Of a stretch of DNA of 64,000 bases, positions 1 through 38,657 are shown one piece after another. The first letter of the stretch is position 1. Each line of letters starts with the position of its first letter. A model generated the notes under the pieces. It had not been told where the DNA came from. It was given only the letters and a program-made list of their open reading frames with translations, and searched no databases. Location of the stretch: sequence record NC_055781.1. The stretch is one strand, 5' to 3'. The translations under genes were made by a program, and so were the position numbers. The DNA comes from Escherichia phage p000v.

Positions 1-489
1 GTCTATTGCTTCTATTACTTGGATTTGGTTCTCTTCAGTCAAATCATTCCATGGGTACCATTCATCATTATAATATATTTCTTTTATGTTTTCACTTATC
101 ATTAATGCTTTATTGTCATAAAACTTTTCAGGGAAAGAAAAACGTATTTTTATACCAGCAACATCAAGTTCAGGTTCGACTAGTTCTTTTTGATATATCT
201 CAAATGGTGCAGTTTTTTCTTTAGAGCATTTAGGGCAAGTGAAAATAACGGGAACTTTTGTTTTGCCTATAGATCCTGCAAAAACTTGCAGGAATATAAA
301 TGGTTGCCATGTTTTAGGGTACTCGCCAAAATAATCATCAATCAGATCGGCAATTATTTCTTTTTGTTCTTGCGGCGAACGATGTTCGATATCATTTCTA
401 ACTAGTAAAAAGTCTCTATAATCCGCCACAGTGAACGGCTTAAAACGATGAACACCATCCGGTAATTTACAACGAATTATATTAGCCAT
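1..489 (-). CDS. Baseplate hub protein, paralogue of gp26, at the position of T4 gene 51 (N-terminal 163 codons; gene continues beyond window start)
   Basis: ATG at 487-489 on minus strand, open in frame to position 1 with no stop (so absent from ORF track). Translation [28 protein letters not shown]...TCPKCSKE...[28 protein letters not shown] aligns by eye with gp26 (537-1163). Gene-51 assignment is by position only. Confidence 0.55.
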
Positions 490-506
490 AATTACTCCTT
501 TTCTAT

Positions 507-518
507 TATTTATAAATA
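507..518. promoter_or_regulatory. Overlapping divergent late promoters (TATAAATA on both strands within TATTTATAAATA)
   Basis: Plus-strand TATAAATA at 511-518, about 19 nt upstream of gp26 ATG (537); minus-strand TATAAATA at 507-514 upstream of the divergent ORF ATG (489). T4 late promoter consensus. Confidence 0.6.
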
Positions 519-536
519 CACAATAAAGGAGTTAAC

Positions 537-1163
537 ATGTACAAATATACGTTTACCGTACGTTTAGGCGATAAAGAAGTGAATTGTAGGGCCTTTACTT
601 TAAAAGAATATTTAGGGCTCATAGGTGCTCGGGCTACTGGTACTATTGAATCAGCAGTGAACAATATTATCACTAATTGCTCTAATGCTAAAAACTTGAC
701 TAAACAAGAAGCCGAGTTATTGTTGGTAAATCTGTGGGCACATTCATTAGGTGAAGTGAATCAAGAACACACCTGGAATTGTTCCTGTGGGCATTCATTT
801 CAAGTCTATATGAATTTATTGCACACTCAATTAGATGAACAGGCCGATCCCTGGTATTCGTTCAGCGGTATTAAAATTAAGTTCCGTCAACCTAAATTAT
901 TTGATGATAAAAATATCGCATTAATGATTGCTTCATGTATTGAGGCTGTTTTTGTCAATGGAGAGTCCATCCCTGTTGAAGATTTAACTGAAGCAGAAAT
1001 AAACGACCTTTATGGCCTTATAACGGAAGATGACATGATCAATATTAAAAATCTTTTAGTATCACCATCAATTTATCTAGCAACCCCTATTAAATGTCCC
1101 AAATGTGGGGCGTCACACGTTCACACAATACGAGGCCTCAAAGAATTCTTTGAGTTACTATAA
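537..1163 (+). CDS. 26: Baseplate hub subunit gp26
   Basis: 208 aa, same length as T4 gp26; directly upstream of gene 25 with TAATG overlap; SD AAAGGAG; late promoter upstream. Confidence 0.8.
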   Translation: MYKYTFTVRLGDKEVNCRAFTLKEYLGLIGARATGTIESAVNNIITNCSNAKNLTKQEAELLLVNLWAHSLGEVNQEHTWNCSCGHSFQVYMNLLHTQLDEQADPWYSFSGIKIKFRQPKLFDDKNIALMIASCIEAVFVNGESIPVEDLTEAEINDLYGLITEDDMINIKNLLVSPSIYLATPIKCPKCGASHVHTIRGLKEFFELL

Positions 1164-1561
1164 TGTCTAATATCAATAAACTTTATTCAGATATCGACCC
1201 AGAAATGCGTATGGATTGGAATAAGGACGTTGCTCGTTCTGTAGGACTTCGTTCTATTAAAAATAGTCTTCTTGGCATAGTGACAACTAGAAAAGGCTCA
1301 CGCCCCTTCGACCCTGAATTTGGATGCGATTTGGTTGATGAACTTTTCGAGAACATGACACCACTTACAGCCGATACTATTGAGCGTAATATCCAGGCAG
1401 CTGTTCGTAACTATGAGCCACGCATCGACAAACTTTCTGTAAGTGTAACGCCAGTATATGATGACTATACAGTTATAGTAGAGATTAGATTTTCAGTCGT
1501 AGACAACCCTGATGATATCGAACAAATCAAACTTCAGTTAGCATCAAGCAATAGAGTGTAA
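1163..1561 (+). CDS. 25: Baseplate wedge / sheath initiator gp25
   Basis: 132 aa, T4 gp25 length; conserved gp25 (GPW/lysozyme-like fold) sequence character; position between 26 and uvsY. Confidence 0.88.
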   Translation: MSNINKLYSDIDPEMRMDWNKDVARSVGLRSIKNSLLGIVTTRKGSRPFDPEFGCDLVDELFENMTPLTADTIERNIQAAVRNYEPRIDKLSVSVTPVYDDYTVIVEIRFSVVDNPDDIEQIKLQLASSNRV

Positions 1562-1641
1562 TGCTTCAAGGCAACCTATGTATAATGGTTTTAGGTCCTT
1601 CCGATACAGCCGGGAGATTATTAGTTAAAAGAGAGAACATT

Positions 1642-2055
1642 ATGAAGCTGGAAGATTTACAGGAAGAGTTAGACGCAGACTTAGCTATTGATATGACAAA
1701 GTTGCAATATGAGACGGCGAATAATGTTAAGTTATACAGCAAATGGCTACGTAAGCACTCATTTATTCGTAAAGAAATGTTGCGTATAGAGACTCAGAAG
1801 AAAACTGCTCTAAAAGCAAGATTAGACTACTACTCGGGACGAGGTGATGGTGATGAATTCAGTATGGACCGATACGAAAAATCTGAAATGAAAACTGTCC
1901 TGGCCGCAGATAAAGATGTGCTTAAAATAGAGACTACTTTACAATACTGGGGAATTTTACTTGAGTTCTGTAGTGGTGCACTTGACGCAGTTAAGTCTCG
2001 TAGTTTTGCACTTAAACATATCCAGGATATGCGAGAATTTGAAGCGGGGCAATAA
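1642..2055 (+). CDS. uvsY: Recombination mediator protein UvsY
   Basis: Start taken at M28 of the 1561-2055 ORF (MKLEDLQEELDADLAIDMTKLQ...), giving 137 aa as in T4 UvsY. Confidence 0.85.
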   Translation: MKLEDLQEELDADLAIDMTKLQYETANNVKLYSKWLRKHSFIRKEMLRIETQKKTALKARLDYYSGRGDGDEFSMDRYEKSEMKTVLAADKDVLKIETTLQYWGILLEFCSGALDAVKSRSFALKHIQDMREFEAGQ

Positions 2056-2279
2056 TGCGTTATTCAATTGAAGATGCCTTTAATAATGATGAAGAATTTG
2101 AAACAGAAATTAAATTCTTAATGGAAAAGTATCGTCTACGACGTCAGGATATTCGTATCCTGGCAGACCACCCTTGTGGTGAAGACGTCCTTTATATTAA
2201 AGGGAAGTTTGCTGGGTATATCGACGAGTATTTTTATACAAAAGATATGGGTATCGATATGTGCATGCGAGTGGTATAA
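2055..2279 (+). CDS. Conserved hypothetical protein (T4 uvsY.-1 position)
   Basis: 74 aa ORF, ATG overlapping uvsY stop (ATAATG); same strand and order as T4. Confidence 0.6.
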   Translation: MRYSIEDAFNNDEEFETEIKFLMEKYRLRRQDIRILADHPCGEDVLYIKGKFAGYIDEYFYTKDMGIDMCMRVV

Positions 2280-2311
2280 ATAGATATGTAATTTCAACTT
2301 AGGAGGCAATC

Positions 2312-2479
2312 ATGTCAGATAAGATTTGTGTTGTCTGTAAAACTCCAATCGATTCTGCATTGGTTGTTGAAACAGACAAAGGTCCAGCACATCCTGGTCC
2401 TTGTTATAATTATGTCCAACAATTGCCGGTTTCAGAAAGTTCAGAAGAGCAATTGAACGAAACCCAACTTTTACTATAG
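2312..2479 (+). CDS. Small Cys-containing protein (T4 uvsY.-2 position), 55 aa
   Basis: Not in ORF track (<60 aa). Perfect SD AGGAGG 6 nt before ATG 2312; MSDKICVVCKTP...HPGPCYNY (CxxC plus a third Cys, zinc-ribbon-like); stop TAG 2477-2479; followed by a terminator hairpin. Confidence 0.5.
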   Translation: MSDKICVVCKTPIDSALVVETDKGPAHPGPCYNYVQQLPVSESSEEQLNETQLLL

Positions 2480-2505
2480 TGTTACCTTTTTTGCCTATGG
2501 TTTTT

Positions 2506-2534
2506 GGCCCTTCCAAAAAGGTCGGGCCTTTTTT
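2506..2534 (+). terminator. Rho-independent terminator after the uvsY operon
   Basis: GGCCC-loop-GGGCC hairpin followed by TTTTTT. Confidence 0.5.
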
Positions 2535-2536
2535 AA

Positions 2537-2770
2537 TTAGAAGTCTTCTTCCTCATCCTCATCATCGTCGCCTTCAAGTTCGGCACGCTTACCTGCTAAG
2601 GCATCCCTGACAGAAATATCATCTGTATCTTTTAATTCCGTTTCTTTTATACGTTTCTTATAATAAGCTTCCAATTCTTCAAGCCCTTCTAAGGTATGAC
2701 AACTAGCAATTTTACCCATGAATTCGTCAATAGATGCTTCGTATAAAAATTGTTTAAATTCAAGTACCAT
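2537..2770 (-). CDS. uvsW.1: UvsW.1 (small acidic protein downstream of UvsW)
   Basis: 77 aa, acidic C-terminus, immediately 3' of uvsW on the same strand as in T4. Confidence 0.75.
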   Translation of the reverse strand: MVLEFKQFLYEASIDEFMGKIASCHTLEGLEELEAYYKKRIKETELKDTDDISVRDALAGKRAELEGDDDEDEEEDF

Positions 2771-2795
2771 TTTTATCTCCTAAGGGCCGAAGCCC

Positions 2796-4310
2796 TTATA
2801 AATTAATTGTTTTCATTACATAGTTAAATTTCTCATCAGCGTAACGCTGGATACGATCAATACCGTGTTTTAACAAGTAATTAAGATGAGTATACTTCTT
2901 TTTAGTATTTAATGATTTAGGTTTTACACCTGCGTCATCGATGAGATCCCAAACTGTAGCAACGGCTTTAGAACCATGCTTACGAAGCACACGACCTACT
3001 GTTTGAAGTACGATAATTTTTGATTTAACACCATGGGCAAAAATAACATGATGAAGATTCTTGACTGAAATACCGGTAGAGAATACTCCATATGATGCGA
3101 CAATAATAATGCCTTTACCATTTTCTGCCATGACTTTAAGCGCGTTACGTGTTTCAGTATCAACTTCACCTGATACGTAATAAACTTTTTCGTATCCAAG
3201 CTCTTTAATAGCTTCAAATATTTCTTTACCATGTGTAACATGTTTAAACATTACAAAGGCGTTCTCGTCTTTCTTAGCCAATTTGACCGAAAGTTGAGCA
3301 ATCCACTTTGTACGACGTTTTAGTCCGGTAATAATTTTAACTTCTTCTTGGTATGTTTTACCTTTTAATTTAACGGTGAATTCGTCCGGATAACGAAGGA
3401 AAATACTATTAATCTTAAGCTCAGTTACTTGACCGTCTTCCATTAATTTAGACGTGCTAACAGGACGGAAGATTTCGCCGAACATACCTACGTACTGCAT
3501 TACATTGGCTTTTCCGTCTCTTAATGAGCCGGATAAACCGAATTTAAACATACAATTATTTAATCCTGAGATGATTGAAGAAATACTTTTGCCTGTTGCT
3601 AAGTGGCATTCATCGTTCATCATCATACCGAACTGAGAGAACCATTCTTTAGGCTGCTTAACTACCGTTTGCCATGTGCCAACAATAATTGGAGCGTCGT
3701 TTTTAGATTTGTCCGCTTTATCGGCACCACCGCCAATTTTCTTAATCATCGAATGACTAAACAAGCGATAATCAACAAAATCATTAGCCATCTGGGTTGT
3801 CAATGCTGTTGTAGGGACGATAATGAGAATTTTACCTTCATAGTTCTCTAGATAATATCGAGCTAAAAGTGCTTGGATGAGTGATTTACCTGCTGATGTC
3901 GGAAGGTTTAAAATTCGACGACGATTAACTAGACCTTCATATACTGCATCTTTTTGATACCAATGTGGTTCGATTTTGGCGTTGCCTGAATAAATTTCTT
4001 GTTTAGAAAGCCATGCGTCAAAATCTTCCCTGGTAAGGTCTTCAGTCTCAAAGATTTTAGGGTCAATCCATACAGAATAACTCATATTGTTACAGAACTT
4101 TTTTATTTGTCCTACAAGTCCATATGGTAACAAACGATTGTAATCTAAAAGTCGAATTCTACCATCCCATTGCCCATAGCGATATTTTGGGTTAAATTTA
4201 TACCCGTCGGCTTCAAAGCTAAAAAAGTCACGAAGTTCGTAAAACGTACTTTCGTCGCATTCAATGCGCACGTGACTAAAATCATAAAAATGTACTTTAA
4301 TGTCAGTCAT
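2796..4310 (-). CDS. uvsW: UvsW SF2 helicase (RNA-DNA / DNA-DNA helicase)
   Basis: 504 aa; Walker A LPTSAGKS, DECH box (MMNDECHLA), helicase C-terminal motifs; T4 UvsW length about 503 aa. Confidence 0.9.
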   Translation of the reverse strand: MTDIKVHFYDFSHVRIECDESTFYELRDFFSFEADGYKFNPKYRYGQWDGRIRLLDYNRLLPYGLVGQIKKFCNNMSYSVWIDPKIFETEDLTREDFDAWLSKQEIYSGNAKIEPHWYQKDAVYEGLVNRRRILNLPTSAGKSLIQALLARYYLENYEGKILIIVPTTALTTQMANDFVDYRLFSHSMIKKIGGGADKADKSKNDAPIIVGTWQTVVKQPKEWFSQFGMMMNDECHLATGKSISSIISGLNNCMFKFGLSGSLRDGKANVMQYVGMFGEIFRPVSTSKLMEDGQVTELKINSIFLRYPDEFTVKLKGKTYQEEVKIITGLKRRTKWIAQLSVKLAKKDENAFVMFKHVTHGKEIFEAIKELGYEKVYYVSGEVDTETRNALKVMAENGKGIIIVASYGVFSTGISVKNLHHVIFAHGVKSKIIVLQTVGRVLRKHGSKAVATVWDLIDDAGVKPKSLNTKKKYTHLNYLLKHGIDRIQRYADEKFNYVMKTINL

Positions 4311-35837: not shown

Positions 35838-37571
35838 TTACCCAATATCAATACGAGATCCGTCAACAGTGTATTGTCCTGAAGCTACTGAGCTCATTGT
35901 AGACATCGTTTCTGCCCAATCCCCGGCAACAGTCATATCAACATTACCATTAACAGTCCATTTAACGTTTCCGTTGACGGTGTAATCATGATTCCCTTCG
36001 ACCTGAGTTTTAGCATCACCTTTAACAAGAATATCTGCATTTCCGTCAACAACTATTTTGATATTACCCTTAACGTAAAGAGTTCCATCGCCTTCAACAG
36101 TTTTAGTTTGGTTACCACGAATAAAGATTGTGTCATTGCCGTCTATTTGATGGAGGCGATCTGCCATGTTATAATATATTTCATTAGCACCAACGTTAAC
36201 AAGCTTATCACCAGAAATCAAGAAGTTCCCATCGCCATTAGTGATGTCAAAAAGGTCTTCTACAGTTTTACGAGTACGACGCCCGGATGGAGAAACTTCC
36301 TCATATGACCCTGTTGGATGAACTAAGCGATAACGTTCATTACCTGGAGTGTCATCAAATTCTTGGATATGACCACTTTCTGTTTCCATAGCATGAACAT
36401 ATGGATACTCACCACGATAACTTGATTCCGGTTCTTTAAAAAGGATGCGTGAATCTAATGGAACAGGAGGACCGGCCGGGTCTTCTGAATCGGTATTTCT
36501 AGTAACTAAATCGGCACCAACTCCTGGTGAAGGTGGTGTTTTAACAGGAACACCGTACGATTCCATGTTACCAGTTAAAATAATTGTTGTTACGCGTGAA
36601 GCACGTCCTTTAGTCTGTTGGAACCATAATGAATCACGCCCGGATTTGTATGCAGTTTTCCAATCACCTGTGGCCATTGCTTTAAGCATAGTATTGAATT
36701 TTGCTACGCCACCAACGCCCATTTGGAAGCACATGTTTTCTAATGCCATTTGACGAGACCTGTTCATTTTAGCATAAACAGGACCTACTTTGGAATTAGA
36801 ACGAATGTCTTTCTGCATCTTAGCAAGGTCTTTCTCAAATAACGCTGTTGCTTCTTCTAATGTAATAGTTCCCGGATTTCCTGTTACTTCACGCCCTACT
36901 TGATCGGATAACAATTTATTAATTCGAGACATATCTCGGGTCTTTTCCATTACGATAAGGTGTCCAATACCTACTGTAGGATATCCGAGATGGTCCCAAT
37001 ACACTTTATCACGAAGTCCTTCGTCACGACGTAACATTTCCGTTATTGTAAAATTAGGGTCATCATCTTCTGGAATATTTGCTAAATCTGTATCGTCTGG
37101 GTTTATACCATAATCCAAGTTGTTATCTTGAATTACGTTAGAGTTTGAATAATAACCGGCTTCACCACCTTGGTTTAATACGTTAGTATCATTACCTAAA
37201 CGTCGTGGATATTGGCCTGTCGGGTCTGAAAAACCTTCAAGTCTATTAGGCTTTTCACGTACGATTCCGCCGTATGTACCAAGTACAATCCCGTTTGTTT
37301 TCCATTTGTCTAAGAAATGACCATATACTCGAGTTCCTTCAACAGGACCTGTAACAGAACCACCAATACCTGACATTGATGCGGACGTAATAGGTTGAAT
37401 AACAGTCATCCATGGAAGTTTTTCTGTAGGAATACCTTGCACATCACCTTGTGCTCTCTGTGCTGGATGAAGACCAACGACTCGAACTCGAACTCGCCCT
37501 TGTTTTAATGGGTCCATTCTGTCCTCGACAACACCCACGAACCAATTAAGGCTACTGCTAATCATTTCCAT
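35838..37571 (-). CDS. 5: Baseplate hub + tail lysozyme gp5 (cell-puncturing device)
   Basis: 577 aa; OB-fold N-terminus, central T4-lysozyme-like domain (EGLRDKVYWDHLGYPTVGIGHLI...), C-terminal VxGxxxxx beta-helix repeats. Confidence 0.95.
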   Translation of the reverse strand: MEMISSSLNWFVGVVEDRMDPLKQGRVRVRVVGLHPAQRAQGDVQGIPTEKLPWMTVIQPITSASMSGIGGSVTGPVEGTRVYGHFLDKWKTNGIVLGTYGGIVREKPNRLEGFSDPTGQYPRRLGNDTNVLNQGGEAGYYSNSNVIQDNNLDYGINPDDTDLANIPEDDDPNFTITEMLRRDEGLRDKVYWDHLGYPTVGIGHLIVMEKTRDMSRINKLLSDQVGREVTGNPGTITLEEATALFEKDLAKMQKDIRSNSKVGPVYAKMNRSRQMALENMCFQMGVGGVAKFNTMLKAMATGDWKTAYKSGRDSLWFQQTKGRASRVTTIILTGNMESYGVPVKTPPSPGVGADLVTRNTDSEDPAGPPVPLDSRILFKEPESSYRGEYPYVHAMETESGHIQEFDDTPGNERYRLVHPTGSYEEVSPSGRRTRKTVEDLFDITNGDGNFLISGDKLVNVGANEIYYNMADRLHQIDGNDTIFIRGNQTKTVEGDGTLYVKGNIKIVVDGNADILVKGDAKTQVEGNHDYTVNGNVKWTVNGNVDMTVAGDWAETMSTMSSVASGQYTVDGSRIDIG

Positions 37572-38146
37572 TATGCAATCTCCATCTCACGAATCAAATC
37601 AGTAATAAACGAGTTTATATCTTCTTTTGCAACAATTTTTATTTTACGAAGTTTTTCATTATCTAATACTGCCGCTTCATAAGTATCTACTGCAGCTAAA
37701 GGTCCTTTATATTGCGGATACTTACGAGCTTCGTCACCTTTGTCATACCACACTAAAGGCTCATCCGGATATGAAACTAAATTGTAAAATTTCTCACGGT
37801 TCTCGTTAATATGGTAAAGAATTTGGTCTCCGCCAGCATTTGCATATTTCTGAATAGACGCTTGATACGCTGCTTCCTGAGATGTAATCCAACCATAATA
37901 TGGGTCATAGTTATCATTGCACATCAAAAGGACCCAGTATAATTGAGGGTTGCCATAAATTATGTTTGCTAGTTCTTCAGGACGCGGAGAGCCTTTAATA
38001 TAATAAGAACGTAATCTATAATTAGCAGCAACACGCTTAAAGTACTCTTTATAGTTACGAAATATGTCTGTCATAGGAATAGTAGGTGCATTCTTATCAA
38101 CTGTTTTAGCACTATATCCTATTGGGTCGAAGAATGTAAATAACAA
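37571..38146 (-). CDS. 53: Baseplate wedge protein gp53
   Basis: 191 aa; (M)LFTFFDPIGYSAK...; first codon at 38144-38146 reads TTG on the minus strand, with SD AAGGAG 6 nt upstream. Confidence 0.88.
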   Translation of the reverse strand: MLFTFFDPIGYSAKTVDKNAPTIPMTDIFRNYKEYFKRVAANYRLRSYYIKGSPRPEELANIIYGNPQLYWVLLMCNDNYDPYYGWITSQEAAYQASIQKYANAGGDQILYHINENREKFYNLVSYPDEPLVWYDKGDEARKYPQYKGPLAAVDTYEAAVLDNEKLRKIKIVAKEDINSFITDLIREMEIA

Positions 38147-38173
38147 AATAGTCTCCTTCCAATATGAAATTGG

Positions 38174-38181
38174 TATAAATA
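38174..38181 (+). promoter_or_regulatory. Late promoter (TATAAATA) for gene 4
   Basis: Plus-strand TATAAATA about 27 nt upstream of gp4 ATG (38208). Confidence 0.6.
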
Positions 38182-38188
38182 ATAATAC

Positions 38189-38196
38189 TATTTATA
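38189..38196 (-). promoter_or_regulatory. Late promoter (TATAAATA) for gene 53 and the baseplate operon
   Basis: Minus-strand TATAAATA about 43 nt upstream of the gp53 start. Confidence 0.6.
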
Positions 38197-38207
38197 AGGA
38201 GGACAAC

Positions 38208-38657
38208 ATGGCCTACTCTGGTAAATGGGTCCCAAAAAATTTAAAAAAATACCGTGGAGACCATACCAAAATAACGTATCGTTCAAACTGGGAAAAATTC
38301 TTTTTCGAATGGTTAGATAAAAATCCAGAAATTATTGCATGGGGCAGCGAAACGGCAGTAATTCCATATTTCTGTAACGCAGAAGGTAAAAAACGTCGAT
38401 ACTTTATGGATATATGGATGAAAGATGCATCAGGTCAAGAGTTCTTTGTAGAAATAAAACCAAAGAAAGAAACTCAACCACCTATTAAGCCTGCAAATCT
38501 TACGACCGCAGCAAAGAAACGTTATATGAATGAAATCTACGTGTGGTCTGTGAACTGCGACAAATGGAAAGCTGCGTCAGCATTAGCGGCTAAAAGAAAT
38601 ATTAAATTCAGAATTCTCACAGAAGACGGTTTACGTCGTTTAGGATATAAGGGATGA
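38208..38657 (+). CDS. 4: Head completion protein gp4
   Basis: Start at M49 of the track ORF (SD AAGGAGG, ATG 38208) gives 149 aa (T4 gp4 about 150 aa); position next to genes 53 and 2. Confidence 0.75.
   Translation: MAYSGKWVPKNLKKYRGDHTKITYRSNWEKFFFEWLDKNPEIIAWGSETAVIPYFCNAEGKKRRYFMDIWMKDASGQEFFVEIKPKKETQPPIKPANLTTAAKKRYMNEIYVWSVNCDKWKAASALAAKRNIKFRILTEDGLRRLGYKG

Follow-up and report, generated by a model that had tools for sequence, protein, structure and literature searches.

Divergent genes 51 and 26 of Escherichia phage p000v: paralogous hub assembly genes separated by a palindrome of two predicted late promoters

At the left end of the 64,000-nucleotide stretch of Escherichia phage p000v DNA analysed here (record NC_055781.1; the whole stretch is called the window below), two genes read away from each other across a gap of only 47 bp. 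A first-pass annotation, made from the letters alone, took their products to be relatives along their whole overlap and read the gap as a late promoter on both strands. Two questions follow from this layout: whether the two proteins are truly homologous, and whether so short a gap can carry a promoter for each of them. The region very probably represents the usual junction of gene 51 and genes 26-25 in Mosigvirus, in which paralogous hub assembly genes diverge from two overlapping late promoters. The products of genes 26 and 51 act in the assembly of the central baseplate hub and are not parts of the finished tail; to our knowledge, the way in which they act in hub assembly is still unsettled after fifty years. 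Both are listed as hub assembly chaperones, gp51 being absent from the particle, and the older T4 literature is split over whether gp26 becomes part of the hub (PMC3004832). The features discussed below are as follows.

Positions 1 to 489, minus strand: gene 51, baseplate hub assembly protein, the N-terminal 163 codons, cut by the window edge (from the translation).
Positions 495 to 500, minus strand: Shine-Dalgarno motif AAGGAG of gene 51, 5 nt before the ATG at 489-487 (read from the sequence).
Positions 507 to 518, on neither strand in particular: perfect 12-bp palindrome TATTTATAAATA, two boxes back to back with 4 bp (511-514) in common.
Positions 507 to 514, minus strand: late-promoter box TATAAATA of gene 51, an exact match 17 nt from the ATG; predicted start near 501, leader of about 12 nt.
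Positions 511 to 518, plus strand: late-promoter box TATAAATA of genes 26-25, an exact match 18 nt from the ATG; predicted start near 524, leader of about 13 nt.
Positions 526 to 531, plus strand: Shine-Dalgarno motif AAGGAG of gene 26, 5 nt before the ATG at 537 (read from the sequence).
Positions 537 to 1163, plus strand: gene 26, baseplate hub assembly protein of 208 aa, one complete PF12322 domain (by PF12322 and similarity to T4 gp26).
Positions 876 to 878, plus strand: ATT codon (Ile114) at the position of the T4 gp26' internal start (by feature 26' of the T4 record).
Positions 1163 to 1561, plus strand: gene 25, baseplate wedge (PF04965, E=4.8e-19; PHROG 261).

The identity of the two genes is readily established by comparison with close relatives. 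Over its first 1.6 kb the window is 99.8% identical in DNA to Escherichia phage FP43, and about 150 records of Mosigvirus, the RB69 group of T4-like phages, are at least 95% identical to this segment. Both reading frames lie where the first-pass annotation had placed them, a truncated one on the minus strand (1-489) and gp26 (537-1163), reading apart. The minus-strand frame opens with the ATG at 489-487 and reaches the left window edge after 163 codons; this fragment is 100% identical to the N-terminus of the annotated gp51, or baseplate hub assembly protein, of Mosigvirus phages. The full protein has 250 aa in FP43, and with the DNA of the two phages 99.8% identical, FP43 gp51 served as the stand-in wherever a full-length gp51 was needed. 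The comparison with T4 that had been proposed as a check bears the names out: FP43 gp51 is 70% identical to T4 gp51 over 249 aa (E=2e-140), and gp26 is 62% identical to T4 gp26 over 208 aa. Gene context is consistent with these names as well. In FP43, T4 and their relatives gp51 heads the unit 51-27-28 and carries a C-terminal extension past PF12322, both of these parts lying beyond the window, and gene 26 combines full-length similarity to its T4 namesake with a gene 25 directly downstream. The arrangement of 25-26 beside 51-27-28 is common to FP43, T4 and nine further genera. Together these comparisons support the assignment of the minus-strand frame as the orthologue of T4 gp51 and of the plus-strand frame as that of T4 gp26.

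The correspondence with T4, whose gp51 goes by the name 'hub assembly catalyst' and whose gp26 by 'hub subunit / assembly chaperone', extends to small details of the locus. The orthologues have near-equal lengths (gp51 250 against 249 aa; gp26 208 aa in both) and the same neighbours, 25, 27 and 28; the divergent layout, the palindrome TATTTATAAATA in the gap, the overlap between genes 26 and 25 and the ATT codon of the T4 internal start are all kept in the window. The T4 gap measures 50 bp against 47 bp here and differs in its flanking bases, with no difference in function to report. The stop of gene 26 and the start of gene 25 overlap in TAATG, and gene 25 would on that account belong to the late transcription unit of gene 26. 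The T4 record annotates 26' as an internal in-frame start giving gp26', the C-terminal 95 aa of the protein, and the core ATTAAAATTAA around this ATT codon has the same letters in T4 and in the window.

The relation between the two proteins is distant in sequence and unmistakable in its statistics. BLASTP aligns the gp51 fragment with gp26 at 25% identity over 151 aa (E=4e-10), and the full-length FP43 protein aligns with gp26 over 214 aa, up to the end of gp26, in a composition-adjusted search (E=2e-10). The pairwise alignment that the first-pass annotation had called for is thus significant for the fragment and for the whole protein alike, and its claim of a relation along the whole overlap is upheld. 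The segments that it had singled out also pair up in the alignment, GIKIRF with GIKIKF and NKALMIS with KNIALMIA. Could two proteins rich in lysine and isoleucine, encoded by an AT-rich genome, resemble each other in this way by chance or composition, their genes being unrelated? An identity of a mere 25%, and an E-value no better than 2e-6 for T4 gp51 against T4 gp26 (BLASTP), would fit such a reading; nevertheless the score of 41.2 bits for the real pair was approached in none of 2,000 shuffles of gp26, the maximum of which was 23.5 bits, and the E-value of 2e-10 already allows for composition. Profile comparisons argue in the same direction. Family alignments were built from database relatives (33 sequences of gp26 type and 41 of gp51 type), and their profiles match each other at 98.9% probability in hhalign (E=2.7e-17), with gp26 residues 13-208 lying on gp51 residues 11-203. 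A single curated Pfam model, PF12322 (T4_baseplate), fits both proteins end to end: with a gathering cut-off of 24.5 bits on the whole-protein HMM score, the gp51 fragment reaches 171.4 bits (E=2.9e-50), gp26 203.5 bits (E=4.5e-60) and full-length gp51 200.2 bits, and gp26 covers model positions 1-219 of 219. PHROG 150 (baseplate hub) likewise takes in both the gp51 fragment (E=2.2e-52) and gp26. The T4 proteins gp26 and gp51, like the pair in the window, match PF12322 essentially end to end, and PHROG 150 too. Independently computed AlphaFold2 models of the two proteins, described below, also agree in the order of their secondary-structure elements. The probability that the resemblance is fortuitous is therefore virtually nil, and gp26 and the first 203 or so residues of gp51 are true homologues, ancient paralogues sharing the one fold described by PF12322.

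A search of 1.84 billion representative proteins with the gp51 profile returned only 103 clusters with E-values of 0.001 or less, and its matches include proteins of gp26 length at 1e-13 to 1e-8. In domain terms, gp51 is a gp26-like domain followed by a helical C-terminal tail of about 47 residues, and gp26 is that domain alone; precomputed database annotation places the tail in a separate Pfam family, PF28602. The AlphaFold2 models of gp26 and gp51 have a pLDDT of 93.3 and 92.6, respectively, and follow the same sequence of secondary-structure elements, namely two strands, three helices, four strands, a helix, two strands, two helices, two strands and a helix. The gp51 model adds three C-terminal helices to those of gp26.

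The cysteines of the two proteins require a more careful reading. The first-pass annotation had listed a shared CxxC motif; both proteins do contain the string CPKC, while the two strings occupy non-homologous positions. In the alignment, C85-P-K-C88 of gp51 lies opposite C82-S-C84 of gp26, and C187-P-K-C190 of gp26 lies opposite C185-C186 of gp51, a pair beyond the window edge. Each protein thus has cysteines at both sites. Within the gp26 family C82, C187 and C190 never vary, and C84 is conserved to at least 90% (it is missing from the relatives P0014, P0016 and P0018); all four cysteines of the gp51 family, C85, C88, C185 and C186, are invariant. In more distant relatives both sites read CxxC. 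In the gp26 model C82 and C84 sit between strands 75-81 and 87-93, and C187 and C190 between 179-186 and 193-199, and in the gp51 model C85 and C88 sit between strands 78-84 and 91-97, and C185 and C186 between 179-184 and 188-193. Such a layout, with two distant hairpins, is that of a zinc ribbon. Judging from the models, the four conserved cysteines in the two beta-hairpin turns probably hold one structural zinc ion in each protein.

The fold of gp26 and gp51 is a confident prediction with no relative among solved structures. A sequence search of the PDB with both proteins found no solved relative (best E-values 0.34 and 0.39), and Foldseek searches of the PDB with both AlphaFold2 models gave nothing below E=0.1, the best being 0.19 for gp26 and 0.13 for gp51. 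Among predicted viral structures, 52 proteins share the fold at an E cut-off of 0.001, and most of them are 'baseplate hub' proteins of large myoviruses, including phages of Campylobacter, Bacillus, Ralstonia and Leptospira. No NCBIfam model matches gp26 or gp51. Pfam zinc-ribbon and rubredoxin matches, sought with all 69 alignment members at E up to 1, were at noise level only and were discarded.

How, then, are two genes that point apart transcribed from a gap of 47 bp? The gap, positions 490-536, reads AATTACTCCTTTTCTATTATTTATAAATACACAATAAAGGAGTTAAC. The phage sigma factor gp55 recognises an 8-bp late box, and late promoters require only this -10-type box; two late promoters can therefore be packed back to back. 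The consensus of the T4 late promoter is TATAAATA, located at -13 to -6 (PMC1524935, PMC2988020). The palindrome at 507-518 contains this consensus without mismatch once on each strand, in both cases just upstream of a late gene, as is the rule for T4 late promoters. From the position of the box, transcripts would start near 524 on the plus strand and near 501 on the minus strand, about 23 bp apart. The ribosome-binding regions are mutual reverse complements too, CTCCTTT at 495-501 and AAAGGAG at 525-531, and so the whole gap is nearly mirror-symmetric, off by one base; relatives have a GGAG-type motif at the position of the gene 51 Shine-Dalgarno sequence. Neither element is commonplace in this DNA: TATTTATAAATA occurs once in the 64-kb window against 0.02 expected, and TATAAATA occurs 19 times against 8.45 expected, a count reached by no shuffle. 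The claim that the gap can be read as a late promoter on both strands therefore holds for the sequence, with promoter activity as a prediction. The evidence supports the view that the palindrome supplies each strand with a consensus late-promoter box, at the right distance from each Shine-Dalgarno motif and ATG, from which transcription is predicted.

The palindrome is strikingly stable across the relatives of the window. It is present without change in 43 of 48 IMG/VR loci that carry the divergent 26/51 pair, down to 33% gp26 identity, and in T4 and seven other annotated phages. The phages with an exact copy in the 26/51 gap include Erwinia phage COW86c, Salmonella phage CF-SP2, Serratia phage X20, Acinetobacter phage KARL-1, Klebsiella phage 311F and Escherichia phage MX01. 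It is found in 21 distinct flanking contexts, with neighbouring bases at a majority frequency of about 55%. The bases 507-510 are private to the minus box and 515-518 are private to the plus box, and both sets are conserved as well as the four that the boxes share. Since these outer four bases on each side serve one box only and are kept all the same, both boxes are under selection.

This pattern bears directly on the possibility that a single box of the palindrome works as a promoter, the other being a by-product of symmetry and its gene being read from elsewhere. Such a reading draws on loci in which the boxes are separate, so that their overlap is dispensable: in Pseudomonas phage PspYZU05 the two boxes stand apart and the transcripts would cross, and in the gap between genes 4 and 53 of the window the two boxes are likewise separate. 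It is difficult to reconcile, however, with private bases that are as conserved as the shared four across all 21 contexts, and both genes stand first in their units with no upstream reading in their direction. A scan for sigma-70-type promoters over positions 1-3000 found 7 sites against a shuffled mean of 10.5, below the shuffled level, so no alternative promoter is indicated. We consider a single working promoter decidedly unlikely, and two predicted promoters, one for each gene, remain the preferred reading.

Five of the 48 loci are without the exact palindrome. The exceptions comprise Ac42, with 11 of the 12 letters, RB49-like phages with TATTTTATAAATA and Aeromonas phages with TATTTAAATA; together with PspYZU05 they indicate that overlap of the boxes is not obligatory. 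From these comparisons, the need would be for one box per direction, and the overlap would be a compact and the commonest way to provide it. The exceptions also inform a quite different explanation, namely that the palindrome serves chiefly to bind a dimeric DNA-binding protein, or marks a scar or hot spot of rearrangement, its match to the promoter consensus being secondary. Perfect dyad symmetry is typical of sites for dimers, and T4 DsbA is reported on A/T-rich sites that overlap two late promoters (PMC2988020), although the same source describes its binding as low in affinity and the protein as non-essential. A rearrangement would be suggested by a tandem order of the same genes in Klebsiella phage Miro and Cronobacter phage GAP161, considered below, since the break between tandem and divergent layouts falls exactly between 51 and 26. 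Against this stands the composition of the conserved unit, which amounts to precisely two copies of the 8-bp late consensus; loci with a broken palindrome, such as those of PspYZU05 and Ac42, keep a box resembling TATAAATA on each strand and not the symmetry, and a 12-bp sequence of A and T only has a negligible tendency to form a hairpin. A primary role as a dimer site or scar is thus extremely unlikely.

A pair of overlapping late promoters would be expected to work as follows. Genes 26 and 51 head opposite units, 26-25 and 51-27-28-29-48-54, and each needs a late promoter of its own because it is the head of its unit and nothing upstream reads its way. Each leader of 12-13 nt would amount to little more than AAGGAG, 5 nt and the ATG. 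An open complex on one box would cover the other box and the other start site, and going by the size of the polymerase footprint the two promoters would therefore fire alternately on one DNA molecule. As the recognised 8 bp are identical, the two promoters should be of similar intrinsic strength.

The divergent layout is not the only one in which this gene pair is found. Klebsiella phage Miro (Slopekvirus) and Cronobacter phage GAP161 (Pseudotevenvirus) carry the genes as 48-54-51-26-25, all on one strand. These phages have the same two paralogues with gene 25 next to them, while the end of 51 overlaps the start of 26, leaving no bidirectional promoter in between. In pairwise comparisons their long protein scores 89-124 bits with gp51 against 31 or less with gp26, and their short protein scores 37-48 bits with gp26 against 23-41 with gp51, which makes the placement of the short one less clear. 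The presence of the pair in Slopekvirus and Pseudotevenvirus too implies that the duplication predates the split of these genera. Of the two proteins, gp51 is the slower to evolve. One layout, tandem or divergent, was derived from the other by a rearrangement with its breakpoint between the paralogues. As for the tail, Sullivan et al. (2010) describe the gp51 of cyanophages and of marine vibriophages as the C-terminal region only (PMC3037559). If so, the T4-type gp51 would combine a gp26-like domain with a small conserved tail. No stand-alone tail protein was found with the gp51 profile among the 1.84 billion representatives, where the short matches P0157, P0163 and P0167 are assembly fragments of T4-type gp51, and the tail-only report is to that extent unconfirmed.

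A domain that occurs with and without a C-terminal extension is reminiscent of another system. In the lambda-like G/GT proteins (and E/E' of P2) there is likewise a pair that serves in assembly only, with a common domain and one member extended at its C-terminus, and both that pair and gp26/gp51 are needed for steps involving the tape-measure protein, gp29 in T4. Labels of 'tape measure chaperone' are scattered among the annotations of gp26/gp51 relatives. From that perspective, gp26 and gp51 could correspond, in the T4 group, to the G/GT tail assembly chaperones, as a domain with and without an adaptor tail that arose through duplication and not through a frameshift. Were that so, the identical and mutually exclusive back-to-back promoters could set the ratio of gp26 to gp51. 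The gene arrangement differs in both of its hallmarks: G/GT are produced from one gene by a programmed -1 frameshift and lie directly upstream of the tape-measure gene, whereas gp26 and gp51 come from two genes on opposite strands, with genes 27 and 28 between 51 and 29. Phage_TAC_3 gave a noise-level match in 2 of 69 alignment members (E=0.11). Foldseek aligned the gp26 model with the HK97 chaperone 2ob9_B below threshold (E=1.9, probability 0.33, TM 0.41, 86 columns), and in the Foldseek search with the gp51 model this match was absent; not being reproduced with gp51, it was rejected as evidence. Membership of gp26 and gp51 in the G/GT chaperones is not supported, and the broader idea of a functional counterpart is unlikely.

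The basic picture is already on record. The paralogy, which the first-pass annotation was unsure was documented, is so at the level of databases: PF12322 and PHROG 150 each hold both proteins, and the annotation of phage Miro labels both genes 'T4 gp26/gp51-like'. Both late promoters have been predicted in RB69 by Nolan et al. (2006), as Pl:118620 (+) and Pl:118672 (-) (PMC1524935, Additional file 5). The two predictions span the 26/51 gap of RB69, 118623-118669, which is identical in sequence to the gap in the window. These facts are known already, and unsurprising for this phage group. The RB69 list gives coordinates only, without comment on the palindrome, on the overlap of 4 bp or on its conservation. 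The T4 GenBank records consulted carry no promoter features. No wording on the gp26/gp51 paralogy or the palindrome, and no mapped transcripts from P26 or P51, turned up in the papers searched.

Taken together, the finding matters little beyond a tidy annotation of the junction. What it adds is small: a 12-bp palindrome that is strictly conserved, a probable zinc site of four cysteines, the relation of domain to domain-plus-tail, the tandem layout in other genera, and a confidently predicted fold with no solved relative. These additions may help later work on the role of gp26 and gp51 in the assembly of the baseplate hub.

Tandem arrangement of genes 51 and 26, which encode the paralogous hub assembly proteins gp51 and gp26, is found in two T4 relatives:

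L013 1501-2795, one strand: genes 51 and 26 in tandem, Klebsiella phage Miro locus
L014 1501-2794, one strand: genes 51 and 26 in tandem, Cronobacter phage GAP161 locus

In both phages the end of 51 overlaps the start of 26, and the pair is preceded by genes 48 and 54 and followed by gene 25. The gp26 homologues are shorter here (184-185 aa), and that of Miro, the one scanned, matches its Pfam profile only from position 61 onward.

The distant PF12322 relatives P0171 and P0172 (about 231-236 aa) carry a CxxC at each of the two cysteine knuckles, forming a clean four-cysteine pattern, whereas the knuckles read CxC and CxxC in T4-type gp26 and CxxC and CC in T4-type gp51. The knuckle degraded in T4-type gp26 is not the one degraded in T4-type gp51. 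Within gene 26, the window retains the ATT at 876-878 that in T4 serves as the start codon of the internal product gp26' (the C-terminal 95 aa), and the surrounding ATTAAAATTAA is likewise conserved between T4 and the window.

Further downstream, two features concern uvsY and its neighbors:

1561-2055, plus strand: uvsY ORF as listed (164 aa in the annotation of Escherichia phage FP43)
2275-2282, plus strand: exact TATAAATA, at the extreme end of uvsY.-1 (2055-2279)

This uvsY ORF, like the FP43 annotation, is probably too long at its 5' end. T4 UvsY (137 aa) is 83% identical to the window protein, the match starting at residue 28, which corresponds to the ATG at 1642. Within the 81-nt "extension", which is equivalent to the 25-uvsY spacer of T4 with its oriF, there is a terminator-like hairpin at 1598-1616. 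The TATAAATA at 2275-2282, with the small ORF uvsY.-2 (2312-2479) beginning 30 nt downstream, may be a late promoter within an otherwise early or middle region.

A further gap separating divergent late genes, with TATAAATA on each strand, lies at 38147-38208:

37571-38146, minus strand: gp53-sized ORF, identified by size and position only
38174-38181, plus strand: late-promoter box TATAAATA, by sequence match
38189-38196, minus strand: late-promoter box TATAAATA, by sequence match
ATG at 38209, plus strand: gp4-sized gene, identified by size and position only

RB69 has a candidate counterpart pair of predicted late promoters at 80613(+) and 80684(-) (Nolan et al. 2006, PMC1524935). As the boxes in the window gap are non-overlapping and "crossed", the predicted transcripts would share a few bases at their 5' ends.
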